A stretch of DNA of 64,000 nucleotides from an uncultured Acetatifactor sp. (GCA_910586435.1 CAJUGT010000003.1:1782-65781), one strand, 5' to 3'. Positions 2,178 through 64,000 are shown, counted from the stretch's first letter. Notes: generated from the sequence alone by a model not told the origin. Made by a program: numbers and translations.

Positions 2178-2469
2178 GGTATAATGTTGACACAGAAAGG
2201 CATTGTGTCAACTTCTGATTCCAAATGCGCTGAAGCGCATGAAATCATGGTATCATGTTGACACTCAAGGGCATTGTGTCAACTTCTGATTCCAAATGCG
2301 CTGAAGCGCATGAAATCATGGTATCATGTTGACACTCAAGGGCATTGTGTCAACTGTTGATTCCATGTGCGCTAAGGCGCGCAAAATCAGGGTATAATGT
2401 TGACACTGAAGGGCATTGTGTCAACTTCTGATTCCAAATGCGCTGAAGCGCACAGGATTATGGTATAAT
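2178..2469 (+). repeat. 4 x 71-bp head-to-tail 'A' units plus a closing GGTATAAT (modular structured repeat family)
   Basis: Units start at 2178, 2249, 2320 and 2391, with period exactly 71. Each is GGTAnnATG-TTGACAC-N11-GTGTCAAC-TTCTGATTCCAAA-TGCGC-TGAA-GCGCA-TGAAATCAT. Confidence 0.9.
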
Positions 2470-2646: not shown

Positions 2647-4437
2647 ATGAATTCCAATAATAAAAAATATAATTCTTTTCAGATACCCAAAAGGACAGAG
2701 CATACGGGAGTTCCTACACCTCCCGGAAAGAAAGCTTCCTCCCTTCCCCAGGGACAGATGGACCTCTCCGACTCTTATTATGAGATAGAATACGACTCAT
2801 GTCCCATGCCAGGAGTGGGAAAATATGTATTAAAATCTCAGAAAATAGAGCAGCCCAAAAAGGACCAGGTCAGGGAATTATTCAACCAAATGAGAGATAT
2901 TGCCAGAGAAGACAGGTATCTTAATTTTCGTACCTCCGGTTTCTATGACAAAAAACTCCAGCAAGATAAGTCCCGGATATTTTATAAACAGGGAATATTT
3001 ATGCAGGACTTTGAGGACACCTATGAGCGGCAGGTGCCTTTTTCTTCCTATTTTCCCGATTATCAGATGATGGGATACGAACAGCTCCGAACCTATTTTA
3101 CATGGCGCGCGAAAGTTCGGTCAGGAGACATTGCTGACACTTCCCTTTCCTATGCCTTCCTGTATTTCTACGAACTGCTGAATAACATTGGTGTGAAAGA
3201 CGCACAGGAAGGCATGAATGCAATCATGTCTTTTTGGAAGACTTTTCGTGTATATCACCAGGAAATTGATAAGTATGTCATACACTGGCTGAAAGATTAC
3301 CATATATACTATGATTTACCCTGGTCTTTTAAGGATTTTATCAAAGAAAATAATCTGGGGGTACATTATCCGAAAGTGATAAATCCTGACGATAATTTTG
3401 ATTTTTATTGTTCCTTATCCAAATATGACATACGAAAATCGAAATTCTACAATGATGATACCCTTTGGTTGATTCGGGATTGTTTTGACCATGTGATAAA
3501 GAGATTACGGGATTCTTTGTCCGAGCAGAAGATATTTTTGGAGGATTTACTGTTTCGATCTCCCAAAAACATGACACCCTGGACTCCCTTCCAGAACGCT
3601 TTGTTCTATCCCGGTCTCAGACACAGAGACAAACGGGTAATACTTTCAGAAAAGGAAATCTATGTCCGCAGCCAGAATACATGGAAATTCCACACAACCA
3701 TTGCCACAGAAAGCGGAAAACAGTTCATTGGTTATATAGTAAAGCAGATGGAATCCGTCTTAAGGACGGCCATGAAATACAAGTACAAACTTTCCGTCAA
3801 AAGCGATGCTCTCAGCCAGGACACTGCAAATACATTGTCACAGGCAGGAATCTCCATAGAGAAACTGGTTACGGAAGCCACCATGGAATTCTACCGTGAA
3901 GCCACCAGGACTGTGGTAAAAGTAAATCCGGGCGCATTGGACAAAATCCGTCAGGAAGCATTGATGACACAGGAGAGACTGATTGTGCCGGAAGATGTCC
4001 AGGAAGAACCCTTCGTAGCGAAATCAGAGGACAGTTCTCCCGTCGCCCCTTCTCCAATGGCTGAACAGGACTTTTCCCGTCCTGAACCATCCACTGCCAG
4101 CCTGGATTCTCTTTCTGACCCCTGGGAATGTCTCAGAAACGCTTTCACTTCTCTGGAACAGGATGCTATCATCCATTTGTGGATGAATCAGGAAAATATT
4201 ACTCCATGTACGGAGAGCCCTAAGGCACAAATATGTGACTTGAAGCAGTTTGCTCAAAATAATAATATTATGTTGGAAGTGCTTATAGACGGAATCAATG
4301 AAAAAGCCGTGGACTGCATCGGTGACAGCCTTTTAGACGGAGAATTTGTCTTTTTTGAGGATTATATAGAACAAATAAAAGGAATGGTGAATCAGTTATG
4401 GCAGGAAAAGTACCCACAAGAATTGCCAATATTTTAA
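2647..4437 (+). CDS. sngA: TerB-N/TerB-C domain protein (Shango SngA-like)
   Basis: TerB-N-like signature YFPDYQMMGYEQLRTYFTWRAKVRSG...SYAFLYFYELLNNIG. It is the first gene of a tightly packed three-gene operon. The start is uncertain because there is no clear SD. Confidence 0.65.
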   Translation: MNSNNKKYNSFQIPKRTEHTGVPTPPGKKASSLPQGQMDLSDSYYEIEYDSCPMPGVGKYVLKSQKIEQPKKDQVRELFNQMRDIAREDRYLNFRTSGFYDKKLQQDKSRIFYKQGIFMQDFEDTYERQVPFSSYFPDYQMMGYEQLRTYFTWRAKVRSGDIADTSLSYAFLYFYELLNNIGVKDAQEGMNAIMSFWKTFRVYHQEIDKYVIHWLKDYHIYYDLPWSFKDFIKENNLGVHYPKVINPDDNFDFYCSLSKYDIRKSKFYNDDTLWLIRDCFDHVIKRLRDSLSEQKIFLEDLLFRSPKNMTPWTPFQNALFYPGLRHRDKRVILSEKEIYVRSQNTWKFHTTIATESGKQFIGYIVKQMESVLRTAMKYKYKLSVKSDALSQDTANTLSQAGISIEKLVTEATMEFYREATRTVVKVNPGALDKIRQEALMTQERLIVPEDVQEEPFVAKSEDSSPVAPSPMAEQDFSRPEPSTASLDSLSDPWECLRNAFTSLEQDAIIHLWMNQENITPCTESPKAQICDLKQFAQNNNIMLEVLIDGINEKAVDCIGDSLLDGEFVFFEDYIEQIKGMVNQLWQEKYPQELPIF

Positions 4438-5714
4438 TTAACGCATTAAAAGGCGGCGTAGTGCCCCGAGCCGGACTGGAATATATTACCGTGGGCCGGA
4501 CACAGGAAATTGCCGCCATTCTCCATGATATTGAGATGATTGAAGAAGGCGGCGCTTCTTTTCGCTTTATCGTGGGAAAATACGGAAGCGGAAAAAGTTT
4601 TCTGCTTCAGACCATACGAAATTATGCCACTGCCAGGGGATTTGTGGTGGTGGACGCGGATCTCTCACCGGAACGCCGTTTTGCGGGTACAAAGGGACAG
4701 GGACTTGCCACTTATAAGGAATTGATTCAAAATTTATCCACAAAGTCCAAACCCGACGGAGGCGCTCTTCCACTTATCCTGGAAAAATGGATTTCCGGCA
4801 TACAGACTTCCGTGAAAACCCAGTCTTCCGCCCAGGGGGAGGACTTCGATATTCTGGTGGAAAAACAAATTTATGCCGTGGCGGGTTCTCTGGAAGGCAT
4901 GGTCAATGGATTTGAGTTTGCCAGAGCCGTTGTGCTCTATTGGCAGGCATACAAACAGGACGACAATACTTTGAAGTCCAATGTTCTCCGATGGTTCCGT
5001 GGGGAATACCCCTCTCGAAAAGAAGCCAAAGAAGACCTTGGCATCAATTTTATTGTCACCGATGAGACCTGGTATGATTTTTTGAAGCTTTTTGCCGCCT
5101 TTCTGGTTGGGGCCGGCTACAAAGGAATGCTGGTTATCATCGACGAACTTGTAAACCTGTATAAGATACCCAATTCCATTACCCGCGCCAACAATTATGA
5201 GAAAATTCTCACCATGTACAATGATGTGCTTCAGGGCAAGGCCAGACATATCGGCTTTCTCATGGGAGGTACCCCGCAATGTATCGAGGATAAATACAAG
5301 GGTATCTTCAGTTATGAAGCCCTGCGCTCACGTCTGGCGGAAGGTCACTTCTCCACTGCCGACACCAGAGATTTTTCCGCTCCCATTATCAGGCTTCAGA
5401 TGCTCACCCAGGAGGAAATGTATATCCTGGTGGAAAAATTACAAAATATCCATGCCGGGCTCTACAACTATACCCCTGCCCTGTCCCAGGAAGACCTGGT
5501 ATATTTTCTGACAGTGGAATACAACCGTGTAGGAGCATCCACCCATATTACCCCAAGGGAAATCATTCGGGATTTTATAGAACTAATCAATATTTTATAT
5601 CAAAATCCGCAGAAAACCGTCTCTGAAATTCTGGGAGACAACAGCTTTGAAATGGCAAAGGGCGGAATAGATGGGGAAGAAATACGGGAAGAATTTCAGG
5701 AATTTGAAATATAA
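4398..5714 (+). CDS. sngB: DUF2791/BrxD-like P-loop ATPase (Shango SngB-like)
   Basis: N-terminal GGVVPRAGLEYITVGR, Walker A GKYGSGKS, Walker B LVIIDELVN. Overlaps the upstream gene by 40 nt. Confidence 0.7.
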   Translation: MAGKVPTRIANILINALKGGVVPRAGLEYITVGRTQEIAAILHDIEMIEEGGASFRFIVGKYGSGKSFLLQTIRNYATARGFVVVDADLSPERRFAGTKGQGLATYKELIQNLSTKSKPDGGALPLILEKWISGIQTSVKTQSSAQGEDFDILVEKQIYAVAGSLEGMVNGFEFARAVVLYWQAYKQDDNTLKSNVLRWFRGEYPSRKEAKEDLGINFIVTDETWYDFLKLFAAFLVGAGYKGMLVIIDELVNLYKIPNSITRANNYEKILTMYNDVLQGKARHIGFLMGGTPQCIEDKYKGIFSYEALRSRLAEGHFSTADTRDFSAPIIRLQMLTQEEMYILVEKLQNIHAGLYNYTPALSQEDLVYFLTVEYNRVGASTHITPREIIRDFIELINILYQNPQKTVSEILGDNSFEMAKGGIDGEEIREEFQEFEI

Positions 5715-18508: not shown

Positions 18509-18587
18509 AATTCATCCTCCCGTACCGATAAGGATTTCATGCTTTGACAATTTCCATCAAATTGCCCTGCCAATACCCCTTATCTTT

Positions 18588-18841
18588 CCATGGCCATTCG
18601 GCCGGTTCCTGCCTTCCATAATTTCGTGTGTTTCAACACACTTGGAATCAGAAGTTGACATAACGTCTTTTGTGTCAACATTGTACCATGATTTCCGCAA
18701 TGCTTCGGGCAGAGACCCGAAAAACCTTCTGTTTTTCGGGTTCGCTTCGCTTGCCAAATGTCCAAAGAAGCATCTGCTCAAACAAGTTTGGCAGTTGCTT
18801 CTTTGGACGCTTGGCTCTGCCCTTTGCGGACATTGTACCAT
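18588..18841 (-). repeat. composite B + A + C modules of the structured repeat family (minus orientation)
   Basis: The reverse complement of 18690-18841 aligns almost base-for-base with 58078-58233. 18616-18689 is an A unit. 18588-18613 resembles 2484-2510. Confidence 0.9.
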
Positions 18842-18969
18842 AGTTTTACCCTTGTTACAAGTCTGTGAAAACGGTAAATGCAGGCAAAGAAATTTCCCGT
18901 ACCCCGAATCACCTTGCGGCGGCACCGAGTGAACAGTAATTTTTTGTTACGTTCACTTAGCATGACAAA

Positions 18970-19533
18970 TCATATTTGAAATAAACTGCCCACCGCCAAT
19001 TTTACCACACCACAGCAGACCATTACCAGAATCGGATTTTTCTTCCAGATACGAAGCACCAGAAAAGCAGCCAGAAATATGCCGCACTCCAGCCAGTGTA
19101 TATTGGCAAAACTTACTTCCGCCCCATCAAAGGCCACAAGTTTTAAAATGGACAGACCTGCTGCCGCAATCAAGGCCACAACCGCAGGCCGAAGACTTCC
19201 CAATACGCTTTGCAGCGCAGACATTTGCTTATAACGATAGTAAATAAAAAATAACAGGGACACTATCAGACAGGAAGGCAGGATACAGCCAATGGTGGCT
19301 ATCACCGCCCCAGGAATTCCGGCGATGCGAATGCCCACGAAAGTTGCAGAGTTTACCGCAATGGGTCCGGGAGTCATTTCCGCAATGGTTATCAAATCGG
19401 TAAACTCACTCATGGTAAGCCAACCATGTTTTGTTACCACCTGTGCCTGTATCAGGGGCATGGCTGCATACCCTCCGCCAATGCTGAACATCCCCACCTG
19501 AATAAAACTTAACAATAACTCTAAATAAATCAT
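18970..19533 (-). CDS. chromate transporter (CHR family, short half-size protein)
   Basis: FSIGGGYAAMPLIQ...EMTPGPIAVNSATFVG motifs. Confidence 0.8.
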   Translation of the reverse strand: MIYLELLLSFIQVGMFSIGGGYAAMPLIQAQVVTKHGWLTMSEFTDLITIAEMTPGPIAVNSATFVGIRIAGIPGAVIATIGCILPSCLIVSLLFFIYYRYKQMSALQSVLGSLRPAVVALIAAAGLSILKLVAFDGAEVSFANIHWLECGIFLAAFLVLRIWKKNPILVMVCCGVVKLAVGSLFQI

Positions 19534-20250: not shown

Positions 20251-20327
20251 TCTTTTATGATACCATCTGACTGTAATTCAAACTGTTATTTCTACCCTTT
20301 TCACTCTGAGGCCCTTCCACCCAATAT

Positions 20328-20550
20328 ATTTTACCATGATTTCGTGCGCTTTAGCGCACTTGGAATCAGAAGTTGACACAATGCCCTTCTGTGTCAACAT
20401 TTTACCATAATTTTGTGTGCTTCAGCACACATGGAATCAGAAGTTGACACAATGCCCTTCTGTGTCAACATTTTACCATAATTTTGTGTGCTTCAGCACA
20501 CATGGAATCAGAAGTTGACACAATGCCCTTCTGTGTCAACATTTTACCCT
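20328..20550 (-). repeat. 3 x 71-bp 'A' units (minus orientation) upstream of the chromate transporter genes
   Basis: TACC junctions at 20332, 20403, 20474 and 20545 (period 71). Units 2 and 3 are identical. Confidence 0.9.
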
Positions 20551-20875
20551 GTTGGCGGAACCATGCTCTATCAAACTTTCCTGTCATAATCTCTCCCTGA
20601 ACCATTCCAAATAATATTTCTCTAAGTATACTGCGTATTACCCGCTCTGTCAATTTTCACTGGATTGTATCTCTTAGATAAGGAACTTTCTTTGCTCATT
20701 TTACCTCGACACCTAAGCCCCACCTGTCCGGCAGCCAGCCGGATAAGGAATACAGTGCGGCTTTCTATCTTAATTGTTCCATGGACAAAACCGAAACATA
20801 ATAGTATAATGAAATTATTCAAAATTCTGGTTTATGAGGATACACAGCTTAACAAAGCGTGTCGAAAGGAGTATT

Positions 20876-21295: not shown

Positions 21296-21388
21296 GATTA
21301 ATGAATAATACACTAAAAAGGAACCTCTTTACATTGTCAAAGAGGTTCCCTTACTATAAAACTGTAAAAAACCTCAAATTGCACTCTG

Positions 21389-21449
21389 GAGCATGTTTGA
21401 AAATTGCTTTCTGACAGCTGTGCTTACAAAGCAATTTTCAAACATGCTC
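21389..21449. repeat. perfect 22-bp-stem hairpin downstream of the HIT gene
   Basis: GAGCATGTTTGAAAATTGCTTT-N17-AAAGCAATTTTCAAACATGCTC. No T-run follows, so it is not a classic terminator. Confidence 0.7.
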
Positions 21450-21455
21450 TAGTAC

Positions 21456-21607
21456 TCCATCCGGTCAGTAATCGTACTTTCAGTACCGCCTATTTTGCCA
21501 TCTACTGCGTTGTCGTCAGCAGGCGTGTCCACCGCATCGTCTCCTTCCTCCGCCTTGCAGACTGCCAAAATATTTGGCACTGGCAGTGCAGTTACTGACC
21601 GGATGGA
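21456..21607. repeat. ~150-bp element bounded by ~22-bp terminal inverted repeats (MITE-like)
   Basis: AGTACTCCATCCGGTCAGTAAT ... GTTACTGACCGGATGGAGCACT. The same termini form the hairpin at 1102-1149. Confidence 0.65.
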
Positions 21608-21695
21608 GCACTAGGCACTGGAAAGGGTTTCTTGCTCTCTTGCGCAAAACCCCGAGACAGCAATGCGCCAAACCCAATAGAAAGGAACCCGCCTT

Positions 21696-32367: not shown

Positions 32368-32486
32368 TTCTCCTTCCCATTGATAAGATAATAAGTTATG
32401 AGCCCTCGTGTGCATAAAAAAAGAAGTCAGCCAGCCTGGTAACTTCCGTAGAAAATACATTGCTACACCACAGTAAATGTATGTGT

Positions 32487-32585
32487 CTCAAATCCTATGA
32501 TCCCTACGTTGGCATTACCCAAATCAGGTTATCGGTCGAAGGTCATACCTTCCTCTCAGCCTGTCATACAAGCTCCCGTTTCTTC
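32487..32585 (-). promoter_or_regulatory. TPP (THI-box) riboswitch
   Basis: The minus strand reads GGGAGC..GCUGAGAGG..ACCUUCGACCGAUAACCUGAUUUGGGUAAUGCCAACGUAGGGA, matching the conserved THI-box core. It lies ~120 nt upstream of thiM. Confidence 0.85.
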
Positions 32586-32856
32586 AATTTTGTTTATTAT
32601 ACACCTTTTCCAGAGGCTTAGCAAGTTATGACGCTACCTATTTTTTTTTCAGCTGCCTCCTGCTTCTCACGCAGCCTTGACGAGTATTGTCCATGCCTGA
32701 CAATTATGGCTGAACTGGTGTTCCAGGTTGTAGCCATAGTTTTATATTAATCTGCTGCGAATTAAGTTTAAGTCAGAATATGTTGATTGTATATTAGAAG
32801 GGAAAATGTTATACTCATATATGAAATCTTTCTATTCTATTGGAAAGTGAGGGAAA

Positions 32857-34341
32857 ATGATGTATATTTCATTGAAACAGCTTATAAAAAATATAACTTT
32901 ATTTCTGGCTCTTTTCTTCCTCTTTGGAGGATTTTCTTCTCATGCAGAGGAACTGACCCCTGTTTTCACTTTATCCACAGGCGGCGACGGAACCTATATG
33001 AAAGACGGCGACTACAATACATCCTATACCTTTCAAGCAGGCGACACAATCTCCGTAACATCAAAAGAAAACACTCCCATTTCCGGACTCTATATTATTT
33101 GGGACAGCCTGGTTCCAGAGTGGACCTTACATACGGATGCGGAAGATATTCTCTGCGGCCAGCACGGATTCCTGCATGAATACATTTCTCTTAATTCACC
33201 TGCGGCAGACACAGTTATCAATATTCTTCATGACAATGTTCGCATAAGTGATATTCGCGTTTTTGGTGAAGGCACACTTACGGAGGATGTACAGATATGG
33301 AATCCTCCTTGTGAGAGGGCGGATATTCTCCTTGTGCCGGCCCATGCGGATGATGAAATACTCTTTTTTGGAGGAATTATCCCAACCTATGGCGTAGAAC
33401 AGGAGGCCCAAATTCAGGTTGCCTATATGTCCGAGTTCTGGAGTTCCGCAAAAATTCGCGAACATGAAAAACTGGACGGTTTATGGGAAGCCGGACTGCG
33501 AAACTATCCCGTATGCGGCAATTTTAAAGATGTATATTCCGATACATTGGAGAAAGCTCAGGAACAGTACAATTTCGATGACATGACAGCCTATATCACA
33601 GAACAAATCCGACGCTTTAAGCCCCAGGTCATTGTAACACATGATGAAAAAGGGGAATATGGACATGGTTTCCATATGCTGACATCAAAAGCCGTAACTA
33701 CGGCAGTGGAAGCCGCTTCAAATGAGACTCAGTATACGGACTCCGCTTCCCTGTATGGCATATGGGACACCCCAAAGACATATCTTCATCTATACAAAGA
33801 AAATATGATACGCCTGGACTTAAGGAGTCCCATAGAATCCATGGGCGGCCGTACTGCGCTTGAAATAGCCGCAGATGCCTATAAAAAGCATGTTTCACAG
33901 CAATGGTGCTGGTTCTATGTATCGGATGATTATGAATACAGTTGCGCGGAATTTGGTCTATACCGCACATTGGTTGGCACTGATTCTCTGGGAAATGACC
34001 TTTTGGAGAATTTGAAAACCTATAAAGTTCAGCAACAGGAAGAAGAGCGCCTGGAAGCGGAACAGAGGAAATTAGAAGAGGAACGCCTGGAACGGGAAAG
34101 AAAGGAACAGGAAGAACAGCTGAGACTGGAACAGGAAAAACGGGAACAGGAAGAACAGCTGAGACTGGAACAGGAAAAATTGGAACAAGAGGAACAGCTG
34201 AGACTGGAACAGGAAAAACAGGAGCAGGAAGAACAGCTTTATTCTTTTATTATGATTCTGTTAATTATCATGGGCATATTGCTTACCATACTGATTATTG
34301 CGGGAACAGGTATGATTTTAAAAAGAAAAAACAGAAAATGA
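32857..34341 (+). CDS. PIG-L/LmbE-family deacetylase with signal peptide, C-terminal coiled-coil repeats and a TM anchor
   Basis: LLVPAHADDEILFFGG and THDEKGEYGHGFH motifs. N-terminal signal-like LFLALFFLFGGFSSHA. C-terminal hydrophobic LLIIMGILLTILIIAG. Confidence 0.75.
   Translation: MMYISLKQLIKNITLFLALFFLFGGFSSHAEELTPVFTLSTGGDGTYMKDGDYNTSYTFQAGDTISVTSKENTPISGLYIIWDSLVPEWTLHTDAEDILCGQHGFLHEYISLNSPAADTVINILHDNVRISDIRVFGEGTLTEDVQIWNPPCERADILLVPAHADDEILFFGGIIPTYGVEQEAQIQVAYMSEFWSSAKIREHEKLDGLWEAGLRNYPVCGNFKDVYSDTLEKAQEQYNFDDMTAYITEQIRRFKPQVIVTHDEKGEYGHGFHMLTSKAVTTAVEAASNETQYTDSASLYGIWDTPKTYLHLYKENMIRLDLRSPIESMGGRTALEIAADAYKKHVSQQWCWFYVSDDYEYSCAEFGLYRTLVGTDSLGNDLLENLKTYKVQQQEEERLEAEQRKLEEERLERERKEQEEQLRLEQEKREQEEQLRLEQEKLEQEEQLRLEQEKQEQEEQLYSFIMILLIIMGILLTILIIAGTGMILKRKNRK
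34105..34236 (+). repeat. in-frame 39-bp tandem repeat (about 3.4 copies) encoding (R/Q)EQEEQLRLEQEK
   Basis: GAACAGGAAGAACAGCTGAGACTGGAACAGGAAAAACGG is repeated from 34105. Confidence 0.85.
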
Positions 34342-49224: not shown

Positions 49225-49520
49225 ATGCGCAGCGCCCTCCATGATATAATATAAAGAATTTAGTAGTAATCTTAGTAATGGCTGTTGATATGTGCAAAAC
49301 TATCTCCATTATACTATTTTTTGGGAAAAAAGGGAATGGAAAACTTGTTAATGTTTTCAGAATAACCTGAGAATAAATCTGAAGTTATTCACATTCTTTT
49401 TTCATACTGTTATCCTGCCCCGGAAAATAATATTGTTATCAACAGAGATATCAACATCCAAACCACAAAAACACAGCAGACATTTGTGTTATATTTCATA
49501 GAAATTATTAACAGCGTGAA

Positions 49521-49598
49521 TCTTTTAAGAGGGATTTATCTTTTAAGAAGGATATATCTTCTAAGAAGGGTTTATCTTCTAAGAAGGGTTTATCTTCT
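49521..49598. repeat. about 4.3 copies of an 18-bp tandem repeat straddling the dnaA stop codon
   Basis: Units TCTTYTAAGARGGDTWTA start at 49521, 49539, 49557 and 49575. Each contains the mini-palindrome CTTCT-A-AGAAG or a near variant. Confidence 0.85.
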
Positions 49599-56132: not shown

Positions 56133-58073
56133 ATGGATATGGAAAAGGTAGATGTTTGTATCGTGGGCGCAGGTCATGCGGGATGTGAAGCAGCTTTGGC
56201 ATGTGCCAGATTGGGGATGGAGACGGTAATATTTACGGTAAGTGTGGACAGCATTGCTCTCATGCCCTGTAATCCGAATATTGGAGGTTCTTCCAAAGGA
56301 CATTTGGTCAGGGAACTGGATGCCCTTGGAGGGGAGATGGGTAAAAATATTGATAAAACATTTCTTCAGTCCAAGATGCTGAATGTTTCCAAAGGTCCGG
56401 CCGTTCATTCTCTTCGCGCGCAGGCGGACAAGTCCGAATACTCCAGGGCAATGAGGAAGGTTCTGGAGGGGCAGGAACATATAACCATTAAACAGGCTGA
56501 GGTTTGTGAACTTTTATGGGAAGAAGTATCCCATAATGATTCCCGGAAACCAAGCGGCATAAATGCTGAAAAAGGGAACAGGAAAAAGATAAAGGGTGTC
56601 AGGACTTACACGGGGATGGTCTATGAGTGCCATGCCGTGGTTTTGTGTACGGGTACTTATCTTGGGGCAAGATGCCTGTGTGGTGAGTCAATCACTTATA
56701 CGGGTCCCAATGGGTTGCAGGCGGCGACGCATCTGACACAGTCTCTGAAGGATATGGGGATTGAGCTTCGGCGTTTTAAGACGGGCACACCTGCCAGGAT
56801 GGATGGGAGAAGTATTGATTATACAAAGATGGAAGAACAATTTGGAGATAAGAGGGTGGTGCCCTTTTCCTTCTCCACGGCTCCGGAATCGGTTCAGAAA
56901 GAGCAGGTATCCTGCTGGCTGACCTATACAAATGAGGAAACCCATGAGATTATTCGTAGTAATCTGGACAGATCACCTATCTATGCGGGAATTATAGAGG
57001 GTACGGGCCCAAGATACTGTCCGTCCATAGAAGATAAGGTGGTAAAATTTGCCGATAAGAACAGACACCAGGTATTTATAGAACCGGAAGGGATGCATAC
57101 AAATGAAATGTATGTTGGGGGCATGTCTTCTTCTTTGCCGGAAGATGTACAGTTGGCCATGTATCGCACGGTTCCGGGACTGGAACATTGTAAAATTGTG
57201 AGAAATGCCTATGCGATTGAGTATGACTGTATTGATGCCAGACAGTTAAAGACAACTCTTGAATTCAAGGATATAGAGGGATTATTCAGCGGAGGACAGT
57301 TAAACGGGAGCAGCGGATATGAGGAAGCGGCCTGTCAGGGGTTGGTTGCAGGTGTCAATGCGTCCATGTACATACTGGGCAGAGAACCTTTGACAATTGA
57401 CCGGTCTGAAGGTTATATAGGAGTTTTAATTGATGATTTGGTTACAAAGGATAACAGGGAGCCTTATCGTATGATGACTTCCCGTGCGGAATATAGACTG
57501 CTTCTGAGACAGGATAATGCTGATTTGCGTCTTCGGAAAAAGGGATATGAAATCGGTTTGATTTCCAGACAGGAATATGAGGCGTTACTGGAAAAAGAAA
57601 AGATGATAAAGGAGGAAATCAAACGACTGAAAGATACTTCGGTTGGCGCAAGAAAAGACATTCAGGAGTTTCTTCAGGCACATGGCAGTTCCGAATTGAA
57701 AACATCCGCAAGTCTTGCGGAATTAGTATGTCGTCCTGAACTTTCGTATGAAATCATAGGAGAGATAGATCAGAACAGAAAGCAATTGCCTGAAACGGTA
57801 AAAGAACAGGTGGAAATTGAAATCAAATATGAAGGGTATATTGAAAGACAGACCCGTCAGGTTGAGCAGCATAGGAAAATGGAAAGAAAACTCATACCGG
57901 AATACATTGATTATGATAAAATTTCCTCCCTCAGACTGGAAGCCCGGCAAAAACTAAAACTGTATCGTCCCGTCTCCATTGGACAGGCTGCCAGGATTTC
58001 TGGAGTGTCTCCTGCGGATATTTCTGTTCTGCTGGTATACTTAGAACATAGTTTTTATTTGAAGAATGAATAA
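56133..58073 (+). CDS. mnmG: tRNA uridine 5-carboxymethylaminomethyl modification enzyme MnmG
   Basis: FAD motif [13 protein letters not shown], plus [13 protein letters not shown]. The start is ambiguous between 56133 and 56139. Confidence 0.95.
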
Positions 58074-58077
58074 ACAT

Positions 58078-58296
58078 ATGGTATAATGTCCGCAAAGGGC
58101 AGAGCCAAGCGTCCAAAGACGCAACTGCCAAACTTGTTTGAGCAGATGCGTCTTTGGACATTTGGCAAGCGAAGCGAACCCGAAAAACAGAAGGTTTTTC
58201 GGGTCTCTGCCCGAAGAATCGCAGAAATCATGGAATAAAGTTGACACAGAAATGCATTGTGTCAACTTCTGATTCCAAGTGCGTTTCAGCGCAAGA
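58078..58296 (+). repeat. B module (~150 nt) plus one A unit of the structured repeat family
   Basis: Starts 5 nt after the mnmG stop with ATGGTATAATG. Near-identical to the reverse complement of 18690-18841. The A unit begins at GTTGACAC (58240). Confidence 0.9.
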
Positions 58297-58339
58297 AATA
58301 AATATGTATTAATATTCTTATCTTGAGGAGGGTATATTG

Positions 58340-63686: not shown

Positions 63687-63725
63687 TTGCTTAGTGGTAT
63701 TCGGTAGTATGTTCGGCAGTTAACT

Positions 63726-64000
63726 ATGTGCTTTAAAATTCTGGATTCATACCTGTTCTGTGGCAGCCAGTTCAGCAAGTCCTGCAAATGAACCATATGC
63801 TTTAAAAGTCTGGATTTTTACTTGTTCTGTGGTAGTCAGTTCAGCAAGCCCCGCAAATGAACCATATGTTTCAAAAGTCTGGATTTTTACTTGTTCTGTG
63901 GTAGTCAGTTCAGCAAGCCCCGCAAATGAACCATATGTTTCAAAAGTCTGGATTTTTACTTGTTCTGTGGTAGTCAGTTCAGCAAGCCCCGCAGATGAAC
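63726..64000. repeat. 69-bp tandem repeat, at least 4 copies, running off the window end
   Basis: Unit boundaries at 63726, 63797, 63866 and 63935. Units 3 and 4 are identical, and unit 1 carries 2 extra nt. Confidence 0.9.

Follow-up and report, generated by a model that had tools for sequence, protein, structure and literature searches.

Between mnmG and a gene of the DHH/DHHA1 family in an uncultured Acetatifactor sp. lies a spacer that can fold into several helices, within a gene block that is otherwise conserved. What is this structure, and what is it doing there? The locus is part of a stretch of 64,000 nucleotides (nt) (GCA_910586435.1, CAJUGT010000003.1:1782-65781), called the window below. 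Its initial annotation described two elements, a multi-helix module B and a smaller unit A, and offered three possibilities: a non-coding RNA (ncRNA), a 5' leader that is structured, or a structured repeat that is mobile. The explanation proposed here, which we consider likely, is that A and B are modules of a mosaic repeat family which is multi-copy, specific to one lineage and located in the sigma-A promoters of Acetatifactor-like Lachnospiraceae, and that these modules become 5' leader RNA.

A dispersed family of modular repeats

The spacer is 266 nt long and contains every feature listed in the initial annotation, within 1 nt of the position given there (the strand CTCTGCCC starts at 58205, not at 58204). 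Its folding energy is -108.5 kcal/mol, compared to -62.7 +/- 4.5 kcal/mol in dinucleotide shuffles (z = -10.1). The structure exceeds chance in two other respects: the hairpin pattern of the A unit occurs eight times in the window, where none is expected, and the fold of B covaries, as described below. A second copy of B+A (18848-18610, minus strand) is 93% identical to the DHH-locus copy over 181 nt and scores 154.7 bits with the covariance model of B. Hence the structure that had seemed unexpected in a conserved block is present, whereas its peculiarity is not: it belongs to a dispersed repeat with three further loci in the same 64 kb.

When one genome per species was scanned, the A core was found at 44 loci, all in metagenome-assembled genomes (MAGs) of Lachnospiraceae, most of them under the label Acetatifactor; a single MAG has up to about 14 of these loci. 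The B-specific pattern identified 27 metagenome loci. Outside Acetatifactor-like Lachnospiraceae MAGs and gut metagenomes, no related copies were seen. Both patterns are absent from viral contigs, and a BLAST search with B+A produced no match in plasmid or phage records; thus there is no evidence for a phage or plasmid vehicle. Rfam 15, searched at gathering and at permissive thresholds, has no family for the module region and yielded hairpin noise only (the best sub-threshold match is mir-4041, 30.9 bits against a gathering threshold of 74). Literature searches by topic and by motif strings retrieved no description of the family. It is an undescribed family of small modular repeats of mouse-gut Lachnospiraceae, situated inside gene promoters.

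Read in the orientation of the repeat, the loci begin with unique sequence, continue with a box and then with modules and boxes in alternation, and end with a last box, a unique leader of about 25-45 nt containing a ribosome-binding site (RBS), and a start codon. The modules are of four types or more: A (about 60 nt, two hairpins), B (about 135 nt), C (with GGCCGAATGGCC) and D (about 135 nt). The observed orders are A-A-A, B-A-C, C-A, D-A, A-D-A, C-B and A-B. The D modules (ACACTCAAGAATCCAGCCGCTGCGCG...GATTTCCTGCTGAT) have the same boxes and are interleaved with A units in the Acetatifactor MAG MGBC107221; they were seen at loci L008, L010, L027, L028, L039 and L041 of our collection. In Schaedlerella-labelled contigs (L083-L086:1050-1130), two different hairpins come after the DHH promoter TGCTATAAT, namely GCGCTGAGGCGC and GTCATCAATTTCC...GGAAATTGGTGAC, which may represent a related leader-module family in another genus. 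A number of public contigs start or end inside repeats (L094, L095, L014, L026, L047, L004), which suggests that the repeats break short-read assemblies.

The junction box and the predicted promoter

Each module is bracketed by a box with the consensus (T)ATGGTAyAAT. The opening motif ATGGTATAATG noted in the initial annotation is the first of these boxes at the DHH locus. The profile of the nine nucleotides preceding module starts is T86 G95 G91 T98 A96 N A95 A100 T96 (in per cent). The box varies freely only at the third position of the hexamer, and T-12, A-11, T-7 and the TG extension are invariant, as in an extended -10 element (TGnTATAAT). The profiles of first and internal boxes are alike. 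All other TGnTATAAT sites of the window are of the TGA or TGC type and none is TGG. As the third G of TGG is needless for promoter function, the box is a part of the element.

The sequences upstream of first boxes are not homologous between loci. Nevertheless, they tend to contain a candidate -35 element at one particular distance. The mean score of the TTGACA match at exactly 17 nt is 2.77, compared to about 1.5 at other spacings; matches in at least four of six positions occur at 17 nt in 20 of 53 first boxes (about 1-6 at other spacings), and TTG itself in 16 of 53 (about 0-5). Of the internal boxes, one in 33 has a -35 element at this distance. By sequence criteria, a first box together with the host -35 element looks like a real and complete sigma70-type promoter. 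The promoter scan of the DHH locus identified TTGAAG-17-TATAAT with the TG extension (10 matches out of 12), and the same TTGAAG is present in an allele that lacks B.

The next long open reading frame (ORF) is co-oriented with the repeat in 57 of 63 scorable cases (74 clusters), and at least two of the six exceptions (the window copy at 18.8 kb and L092) are spurious ORF calls. The upstream ORFs are mixed, 33 co-oriented versus 31 divergent. Thus the family occupies 5' regions in the sense orientation. A scan of the plus strand between mnmG and the DHH gene revealed no terminator. With a promoter upstream, a co-oriented gene next and no terminator between them, the stretch is positioned as a 5' leader, in agreement with the second possibility of the initial annotation.

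Fold and covariation of the B module

An alignment of 24 distinct copies of B was folded by RNAalifold. The resulting consensus is a three-way junction with the same helices, at the same places, as were read by eye from the single copy; the long hairpin, reported as about 28 base pairs (bp), has 27 consensus pairs. Homologues clearly tend to preserve the helices and not to break them: standard pairs fill 96.3% of the cells, compared to 26-43% after a shift of the 3' partners by 1-3 columns. Two-sided changes occur in 24 of the 48 pairs of B versus 11.7 +/- 1.8 in shuffled alignments, and on no measure of covariation is the observed value attained in any of 500 shuffles. The covarying pairs belong to helices P2 (18 pairs) and P3 (6 pairs), while P1 never varies. 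Hence P2 and P3 are conserved as pairings only, and P1 and the junction J2/3, with the motif GAGCGAAGCGAA, are conserved in sequence.

On the sense strand, G.U and U.G pairs outnumber A.C and C.A pairs, 44 to 12, or 26 to 12 if one conserved G.U pair is disregarded. The apical loop of P2 is CUUG in 22 copies and UUCG in two; both are classes of stable RNA tetraloops. The excess of G.U pairs and the loop types favour selection on the sense-strand RNA. The best-supported interpretation is that selection maintains the fold of B as a structured RNA module, as judged from the pattern of substitutions. Being compact and extremely stable, with covariation in its support, B may be considered a candidate for a new RNA motif.

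The copies of B differ in length by -8, -2, -1, +4 and +20 nt. These are not multiples of three, and the coding interpretation of a 50-codon ORF at 58086-58238 was therefore rejected. A possible outer helix P0 (TCCGCAA / TTGCGGA) has at least six of seven pairs in 9 of 24 copies, versus about 7% in controls. It was set aside as a part of the selected fold, since the complementarity is residual and shows no compensation; P0 looks like a decaying terminal inverted repeat (TIR).

The sequence 3' of B is variable: a module of type A, C or D may stand there, or tandem repeats, or directly an RBS. Short species-specific tandem repeats are frequent at this place (L051, L056, L066, L067, L049/L059, L048, L062). 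Some of them duplicate the 3' half of B (J2/3, P3 and the 3' strand of P1) and would provide the 5' strand of P1 with alternative partners. Loci L049 and L059 have common flanks and different tandem repeats after B.

Gain, loss and exchange of modules

Contigs encoding identical DHH proteins contain two alleles of the locus. The spacer is 266 nt in the window and in L073, and 114 nt in L072, L074, L075 and L076. The short allele reads ...AAACAT ATGGTATAATG TTGACAC..., and the long one has TCCGC...B...GAAATC ATGGAATAAAG between ATGGTATAATG and TTGACAC. The difference of 152 nt is thus B plus the second box, and the breakpoint falls exactly at the end of the first box. The two boxes flanking B in the long allele are identical at 9 of 11 positions. 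The loop of the adjacent A unit differs between the alleles (AAATGCA versus AGGGYG), and the next 90 nt are identical.

An orthologous promoter of two species, with flanks about 75% identical, provides a second example. One species has an extra C module and box, 70 nt in total, with ATGGTATAAT on both sides (10 of 10 positions identical). The B module of the same promoter is retained in both species, and its P2 has diverged with compensation. These insertions or deletions of modules are flanked by direct repeats of 10-11 nt, and the repeat is always the same TGG-type box, not a native sequence.

A rearrangement also respects the box. In one strain (L092:1100-1302, compared to window 18848-18980, minus strand), the DNA upstream of a B-A-C locus has been replaced by unrelated sequence; homology resumes exactly at the box ATGGTACAATG, and a gene for a PF04439 adenylyltransferase adjoins the replacement. 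Near-identical strains differ by paired changes in A hairpin 2 that are linked to TTCTGATT/TGTTGATT, and the linked combination matches another A copy of the window (2312-2387). Judged from these sequences, such changes bear the signature of gene conversion among copies. One more pair, L009 and L061, with A in one and B in the other, was discarded as a possible orthologous pair, as the flanks do not correspond at the element.

The DHH gene itself appears to be a newcomer. Its orthologues (85-92% identity) have a different gene neighbourhood in every related species examined (L077-L090, L096-L101), with ordinary TGT, TGC or TGA -10 boxes and short leaders without modules. Thus both the position of the DHH gene between mnmG and rsmG and the modules in front of it are lineage-specific additions, the position being peculiar to this species, and structure at this place is less surprising than it had seemed, because both additions are recent and variable. 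The empty ancestral promoter of the mnmG-DHH site could not be recovered, as seven DHH orthologues all lie in other neighbourhoods.

A multi-copy family restricted to one lineage, with a module content that varies between strains and species and changes rapidly, agrees with the third possibility of the initial annotation, a mobile structured repeat. The leader and the mobile-repeat interpretations are both supported, together.

The A unit

Hairpin 1 of the A unit is a perfect 8-bp dyad, near-invariant in sequence across species. Its rare variants are fully compensated (GTCGAAAC / GTTTCGAC and GTTGACAT / ATGTCAAC). Hairpin 2 demonstrates modest covariation.

A possible mechanism

The sequence data suggest the following scheme. 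The first box, placed 17 nt from a host -35 element, would start transcription, and the modules would be read in the sense direction and delivered to the downstream gene as its 5' leader, here to the gene of the DHH phosphoesterase. The transcription start site (TSS) would be about 7 nt after the -10 box. As P1 begins about 10 nt after the box, the mRNA would have it at its very 5' end, so that B would cap the transcript, a geometry that would suit a stabilizer.

The modules may be spread or lost by recombination at the common box, through ectopic gene conversion or unequal crossing-over. This seems the simplest interpretation, given that all junctions are at the common box, the two clean insertions or deletions are a module plus one box, and patches move between copies. 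Other routes might be re-integration of a circle or, possibly, a dedicated enzyme.

The main effect of B would be a changed fate of the mRNA. Firstly, B could shield the 5' end from decay of the RNase J type. Secondly, it could be processed within P2, whose 27 bp would be long enough for RNase III. Finally, the invariant P1 and junction could be a protein site. Protection of the 5' end would be the most likely of these effects, by analogy with mRNA decay in Firmicutes in general, and it is suggested tentatively, as by itself less likely than not.

Evidence against the leader RNA and alternative explanations

Several observations weigh against this explanation or parts of it. Firstly, the opposite strand of the spacer folds about as well (z = -10.9), and so the energy alone cannot pick the strand. 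In addition, J2/3 contains GCGAAGC, which is a very stable mini-hairpin in DNA too, and thus a role of B as single-stranded DNA is possible. Secondly, the invariance of GCAAAGGGCAGAG and GCGAAGCGAACCC is partly built in, as both were fixed by the search pattern. Only the two window copies, L006, L033 and L035 were found independently of it; a search of the A-selected loci with the covariance model of B added no further diverged full-length copies, and this ascertainment caveat on the junction motif remains. Thirdly, the imperfect boxes around B and the changed A loop in the long allele of the DHH locus indicate a recombination patch rather than a clean insertion. Fourthly, the first boxes are mostly of the element type, TGG, and not of the native types TGA, TGC or TGT, and yet they stand 17 nt from the host -35 element; this is explained neither by duplication of a native -10 box nor by random insertion. 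Fifthly, the 5' arm of A hairpin 1 begins within 1 nt of the -10 box. A transcript started at the adjoining box would lose a part of this arm, and therefore hairpin 1 cannot act as RNA when A is in the first position; it could do so only if transcribed from further upstream, or else it could act in DNA. Finally, only predictions speak for the position of the TSS, for activity of the internal boxes and for B existing as an RNA.

One alternative is that B is a selfish MITE (miniature inverted-repeat transposable element) whose hairpins or TIRs are recognized in DNA by a transposase or recombinase, the RNA being a by-product. Indeed, B is shorter than 200 bp, non-coding, multi-copy and tightly folded, with direct repeats of 10-11 nt at its sides, and it is present or absent between strains. 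Its ends are TIR-like, as P1 and the decaying P0 behave like TIRs of 16-20 nt, and both strands fold equally well. It is not AT-rich, the G+C content of the copies being 49-59%. A DNA-level event has occurred at the DHH locus, where the loop of A hairpin 2 is inverted (TTCA versus TGAA). However, the apparent target-site duplication is always the same sequence, of the element-type TGG rather than native, and no TIRs are seen in the A, C and D modules, which share the box junctions. Phages, plasmids and viral contigs yielded no copy. The orientation relative to the promoter and the gene is fixed in 57 of 63 loci, the preference of G.U over A.C pairs, 44 to 12, is confined to the sense strand, and the CUUG/UUCG apical loops have a stability of the RNA type. 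Moreover, B has been kept at the orthologous promoter with compensated stems, although the flanks of the two species have diverged by about 25%. Hence we consider a MITE unlikely, if worth serious attention. A model in the style of IS200/IS605, with insertion 3' of a fixed target and sub-terminal hairpins, was set aside, as the hairpins of the four module types are mutually unrelated.

More doubtful still is a reading in which the modules are non-coding leader cassettes. A mechanism of their own, sequence-specific and integron-like, would move them and would either target the sigma-A extended -10 box or regenerate it. B would then be a protein-binding RNA uniting unrelated genes under a common post-transcriptional control, and the gain and loss of modules between strains would amount to programmed retuning of expression.

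The A units, in turn, could be portable operator cassettes, the palindrome GTTGACAC-N11-GTGTCAAC, at about +2 to +28, being the site of a dimeric DNA-binding regulator. The conservation of hairpin 1 across species goes beyond pairing, as would be expected of an operator, the dyad is perfect over 8 bp, and it abuts the -10 box just where a start site would cut the 5' arm. On the other hand, the compensated rare variants suit a hairpin, whereas a protein site would hardly account for them, A units form arrays of up to four, away from the start site, and no candidate regulator was identified. On balance, operators seem distinctly improbable.

It is very unlikely that B is an independent small RNA gene which has a promoter to itself, acts in trans or as a protein-binding RNA and stands upstream of genes by accident, and this was the least supported of the three possibilities of the initial annotation. 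The strong predicted promoter directly in front, the conservation of the junction and P1 in sequence with the stems kept as pairings only, and the lack of an Rfam match, which would allow a new RNA class, are in line with it. However, no intrinsic terminator follows B at the DHH locus and no U-tract is seen after other copies, B is co-oriented with the next gene, and in L060, L063, L064 and L071 it runs straight into the RBS and start codon. Two copies in 64 kb and absence from DHH-identical strains would be unusual for a dedicated small RNA gene.

A riboswitch, another ligand-sensing cis-regulator or a self-cleaving ribozyme, for which the covarying stems and the conserved unpaired junction of a three-way structure in 5' leaders might speak, is highly improbable, since the genes after B are functionally unrelated housekeeping genes (by N-terminal sequences: Sua5-like, phospho-sugar mutase, RuvA, ECF S-component, DeoB, chloramphenicol acetyltransferase, response regulator and cobalamin adenosyltransferase-like), what comes after B varies, there is no terminator or anti-RBS expression platform, and no such Rfam family scores above noise. 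In particular, a hammerhead-type ribozyme was set aside on the absence of an Rfam match and on the lengths of the junction strands (0, 12 and 1 nt), which are unlike the hammerhead core.

Layout of the loci in the window

The coordinates of the DHH locus and of the three other loci of the window are given in Table 1. The Pfam assignment of the DHH gene is a weak match to DHHA1, and close homologues of its product are named exopolyphosphatase or nanoRNase in some sources. The gene after the second copy of B belongs to the Pfam family Cytidylate_kin2. The A array at 2177 is preceded by the promoter TTGTAA-17-TGGTATAAT. The locus behind this array (window 2647-5714) seems to be of the defence type, as the TerB_N/TerB_C gene of a matching contig is followed by a BrxC_BrxD/AAA_16 gene. 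A look-up of the TerB protein retrieved only a contig truncated at the repeat, and that of the chromate-transporter protein retrieved no record.

Table 1. Repeat modules, boxes and adjoining genes in the window
Feature	Position	Strand	Remarks
mnmG (GIDA) ORF	end 58073	+	ORF and domain annotation
-35-like hexamer TTGAAG	58059..58064	+	host sequence inside the 3' end of mnmG
First junction box ATGGTATAATG	58078..58088	+	extended -10 (TGnTATAAT); left edge of the repeat
B module, three-way junction	58089..58229	+	3' tail reaches GAAATC
B helix P1	58097-58103 / 58206-58212	+	fold backed by covariation
Pairing of GGGCAGAG with CTCTGCCC	58097-58104 / 58205-58212	+	read from the sequence
B helix P2, long hairpin	58104-58133 / 58136-58166	+	27 consensus pairs
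B linker AAGCGAAGCGAA (J2/3: 58167-58177)	58167-58178	+	conserved junction
B helix P3, second hairpin	58178-58189 / 58193-58204	+	fold backed by covariation
Second junction box ATGGAATAAAG	58230..58240	+	degenerate; 9/11 identical to the first box
One A unit	58240..58299	+	two hairpins and conserved CTTCTGATTCCA
A hairpin 1, GTTGACAC-N11-GTGTCAAC	58240-58247 / 58259-58266	+	
A hairpin 2, GCGTTTCAGCGC	58282-58293	+	
Possible terminal box ATGTATTAAT	58305..58314	+	degenerate, before the native short leader; weak, by analogy with other loci
RBS GAGGAGGG	58325-58332	+	upstream of the DHH ATG
DHH/DHHA1-family gene	ATG 58340, to 59260	+	predicted to be served by this promoter and leader
Second copy: box, B, box, A, truncated C-like tail	18585..18848	-	upstream of cytidylate-kinase-like gene (18508-18023)
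A-unit array, 3.9 copies, period 71	2177-2452, C-like tail to 2510	+	upstream of TerB_N/TerB_C gene (2647-4437)
A-unit array, 3.1 copies, period 71	20548-20328, feature 20290..20551 including degenerate C-like tail	-	upstream of chromate-transporter gene (20250-19660)

Other features of the window

The sole Rfam family above threshold in the window is the thiamine pyrophosphate (TPP) riboswitch, at 32484-32589 on the minus strand (61.4 bits, gathering threshold 54.3). A second, unrelated family of dispersed palindromic repeats (CTAGTGYTCCATCCGGTCAGTAAC..., in inverted pairs) is found in intergenic regions at 1095-1157 and 21386-21614, about 20 kb apart.

A tandem repeat at 63722-64000 has a period of 69 nt (23 codons), four copies and 93% identity, and runs off the end of the window. 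Its minus-strand frame is open throughout, repeating ...GSFAGLAELTTTEQVKIQTFETY..., and the repeat probably belongs to the coding sequence of a gene that extends into the window from outside. The tandem repeats at 34034-34238 and 49520-49598 presumably are coding repeats as well: they look in-frame, with periods of 39 and 24, the translation being E/Q-rich, and with 18 nt x 4.4.

Comparison with known repeat families

The family is of the kind of small interspersed mosaic repeats. It is unusual in its -10-box linker, its strict placement in the sense of the promoter and its three-way-junction RNA module.

The pneumococcal BOX elements (boxA-boxB(n)-boxC) are small, modular, folded and co-transcribed, and are thought to alter the expression of neighbouring genes (Croucher et al. 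2011, PMC3049150). The Lachnospiraceae family resembles them in having non-coding, multi-copy, intergenic modules of less than 200 bp, of a few types in variable number and order, and confined to one lineage. This is a likeness of modularity: no sequence similarity is evident, homology with boxA, boxB and boxC not having been compared directly. BOX lacks a linker of the kind that brackets the present modules, the -10 box. The pneumococcal repeats are over-represented between convergent genes, as tabulated in the same study (PMC3049150). The Lachnospiraceae family, in contrast, lies 5' of a co-oriented gene in 57 of 63 cases, a location different from the 3' ends and convergent genes of BOX and REP/BIME.

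Correia elements (CREE) of Neisseria are short repeats with inverted ends, namely TIRs of 26 bp; their insertion can create promoters, and the hairpin in the transcript is cut by RNase III, which changes mRNA stability (PMC3049150). B likewise joins a promoter box and a helix of 27 bp. Correia elements duplicate the dinucleotide TA and insert in either orientation. In the Lachnospiraceae family, the junction is an extended -10 box of 10-12 nt, the orientation is fixed, and three of the four module types have no TIRs.

With REP/BIME sequences of enterobacteria and with REPINs the family shares a mosaic of short palindromic units in regular patterns, a high copy number and lineage specificity. 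REP/BIME sequences are located mostly at 3' ends or between genes of an operon and are tied to RAYT transposases, whereas the Lachnospiraceae family is 5' and linked to promoters; a link with RAYT was not seen in it, though no search aimed at one was made.

The leader stem-loops that act as 5'-terminal stabilizers in Firmicutes, such as those of aprE and ermC, prolong the life of the mRNA in organisms that have the 5'-exonuclease RNase J. B is similar in being a very stable structure a few nucleotides from the predicted 5' end. The known stabilizers are hairpins of single loci, whereas B is dispersed and forms a covarying three-way junction whose junction sequence is conserved.

Putative mobile promoters, that is, near-identical promoter-bearing intergenic sequences in front of unrelated genes within and between genomes, have also been reported (PMC3575422). 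The part of that study considered here is a generic census of similarity and describes neither box-bracketed modules nor a covarying RNA fold (PMC3575422).

Implications

Good descriptions of small interspersed repeats exist for proteobacteria, streptococci and neisseriae. No description of such a repeat was found for Lachnospiraceae, a dominant group in the rodent and human gut. In comparative screens, the modules are liable to pass for new ncRNAs or for candidate riboswitches. If B indeed stabilizes mRNA, it might provide a portable leader for engineering of gut Clostridia. For the bacteria themselves, the family means 5' leaders built of interchangeable structured modules joined by a promoter box. 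As these leaders vary between strains with identical coding sequences, differences in expression could arise without any change in the gene or in its -35 element.

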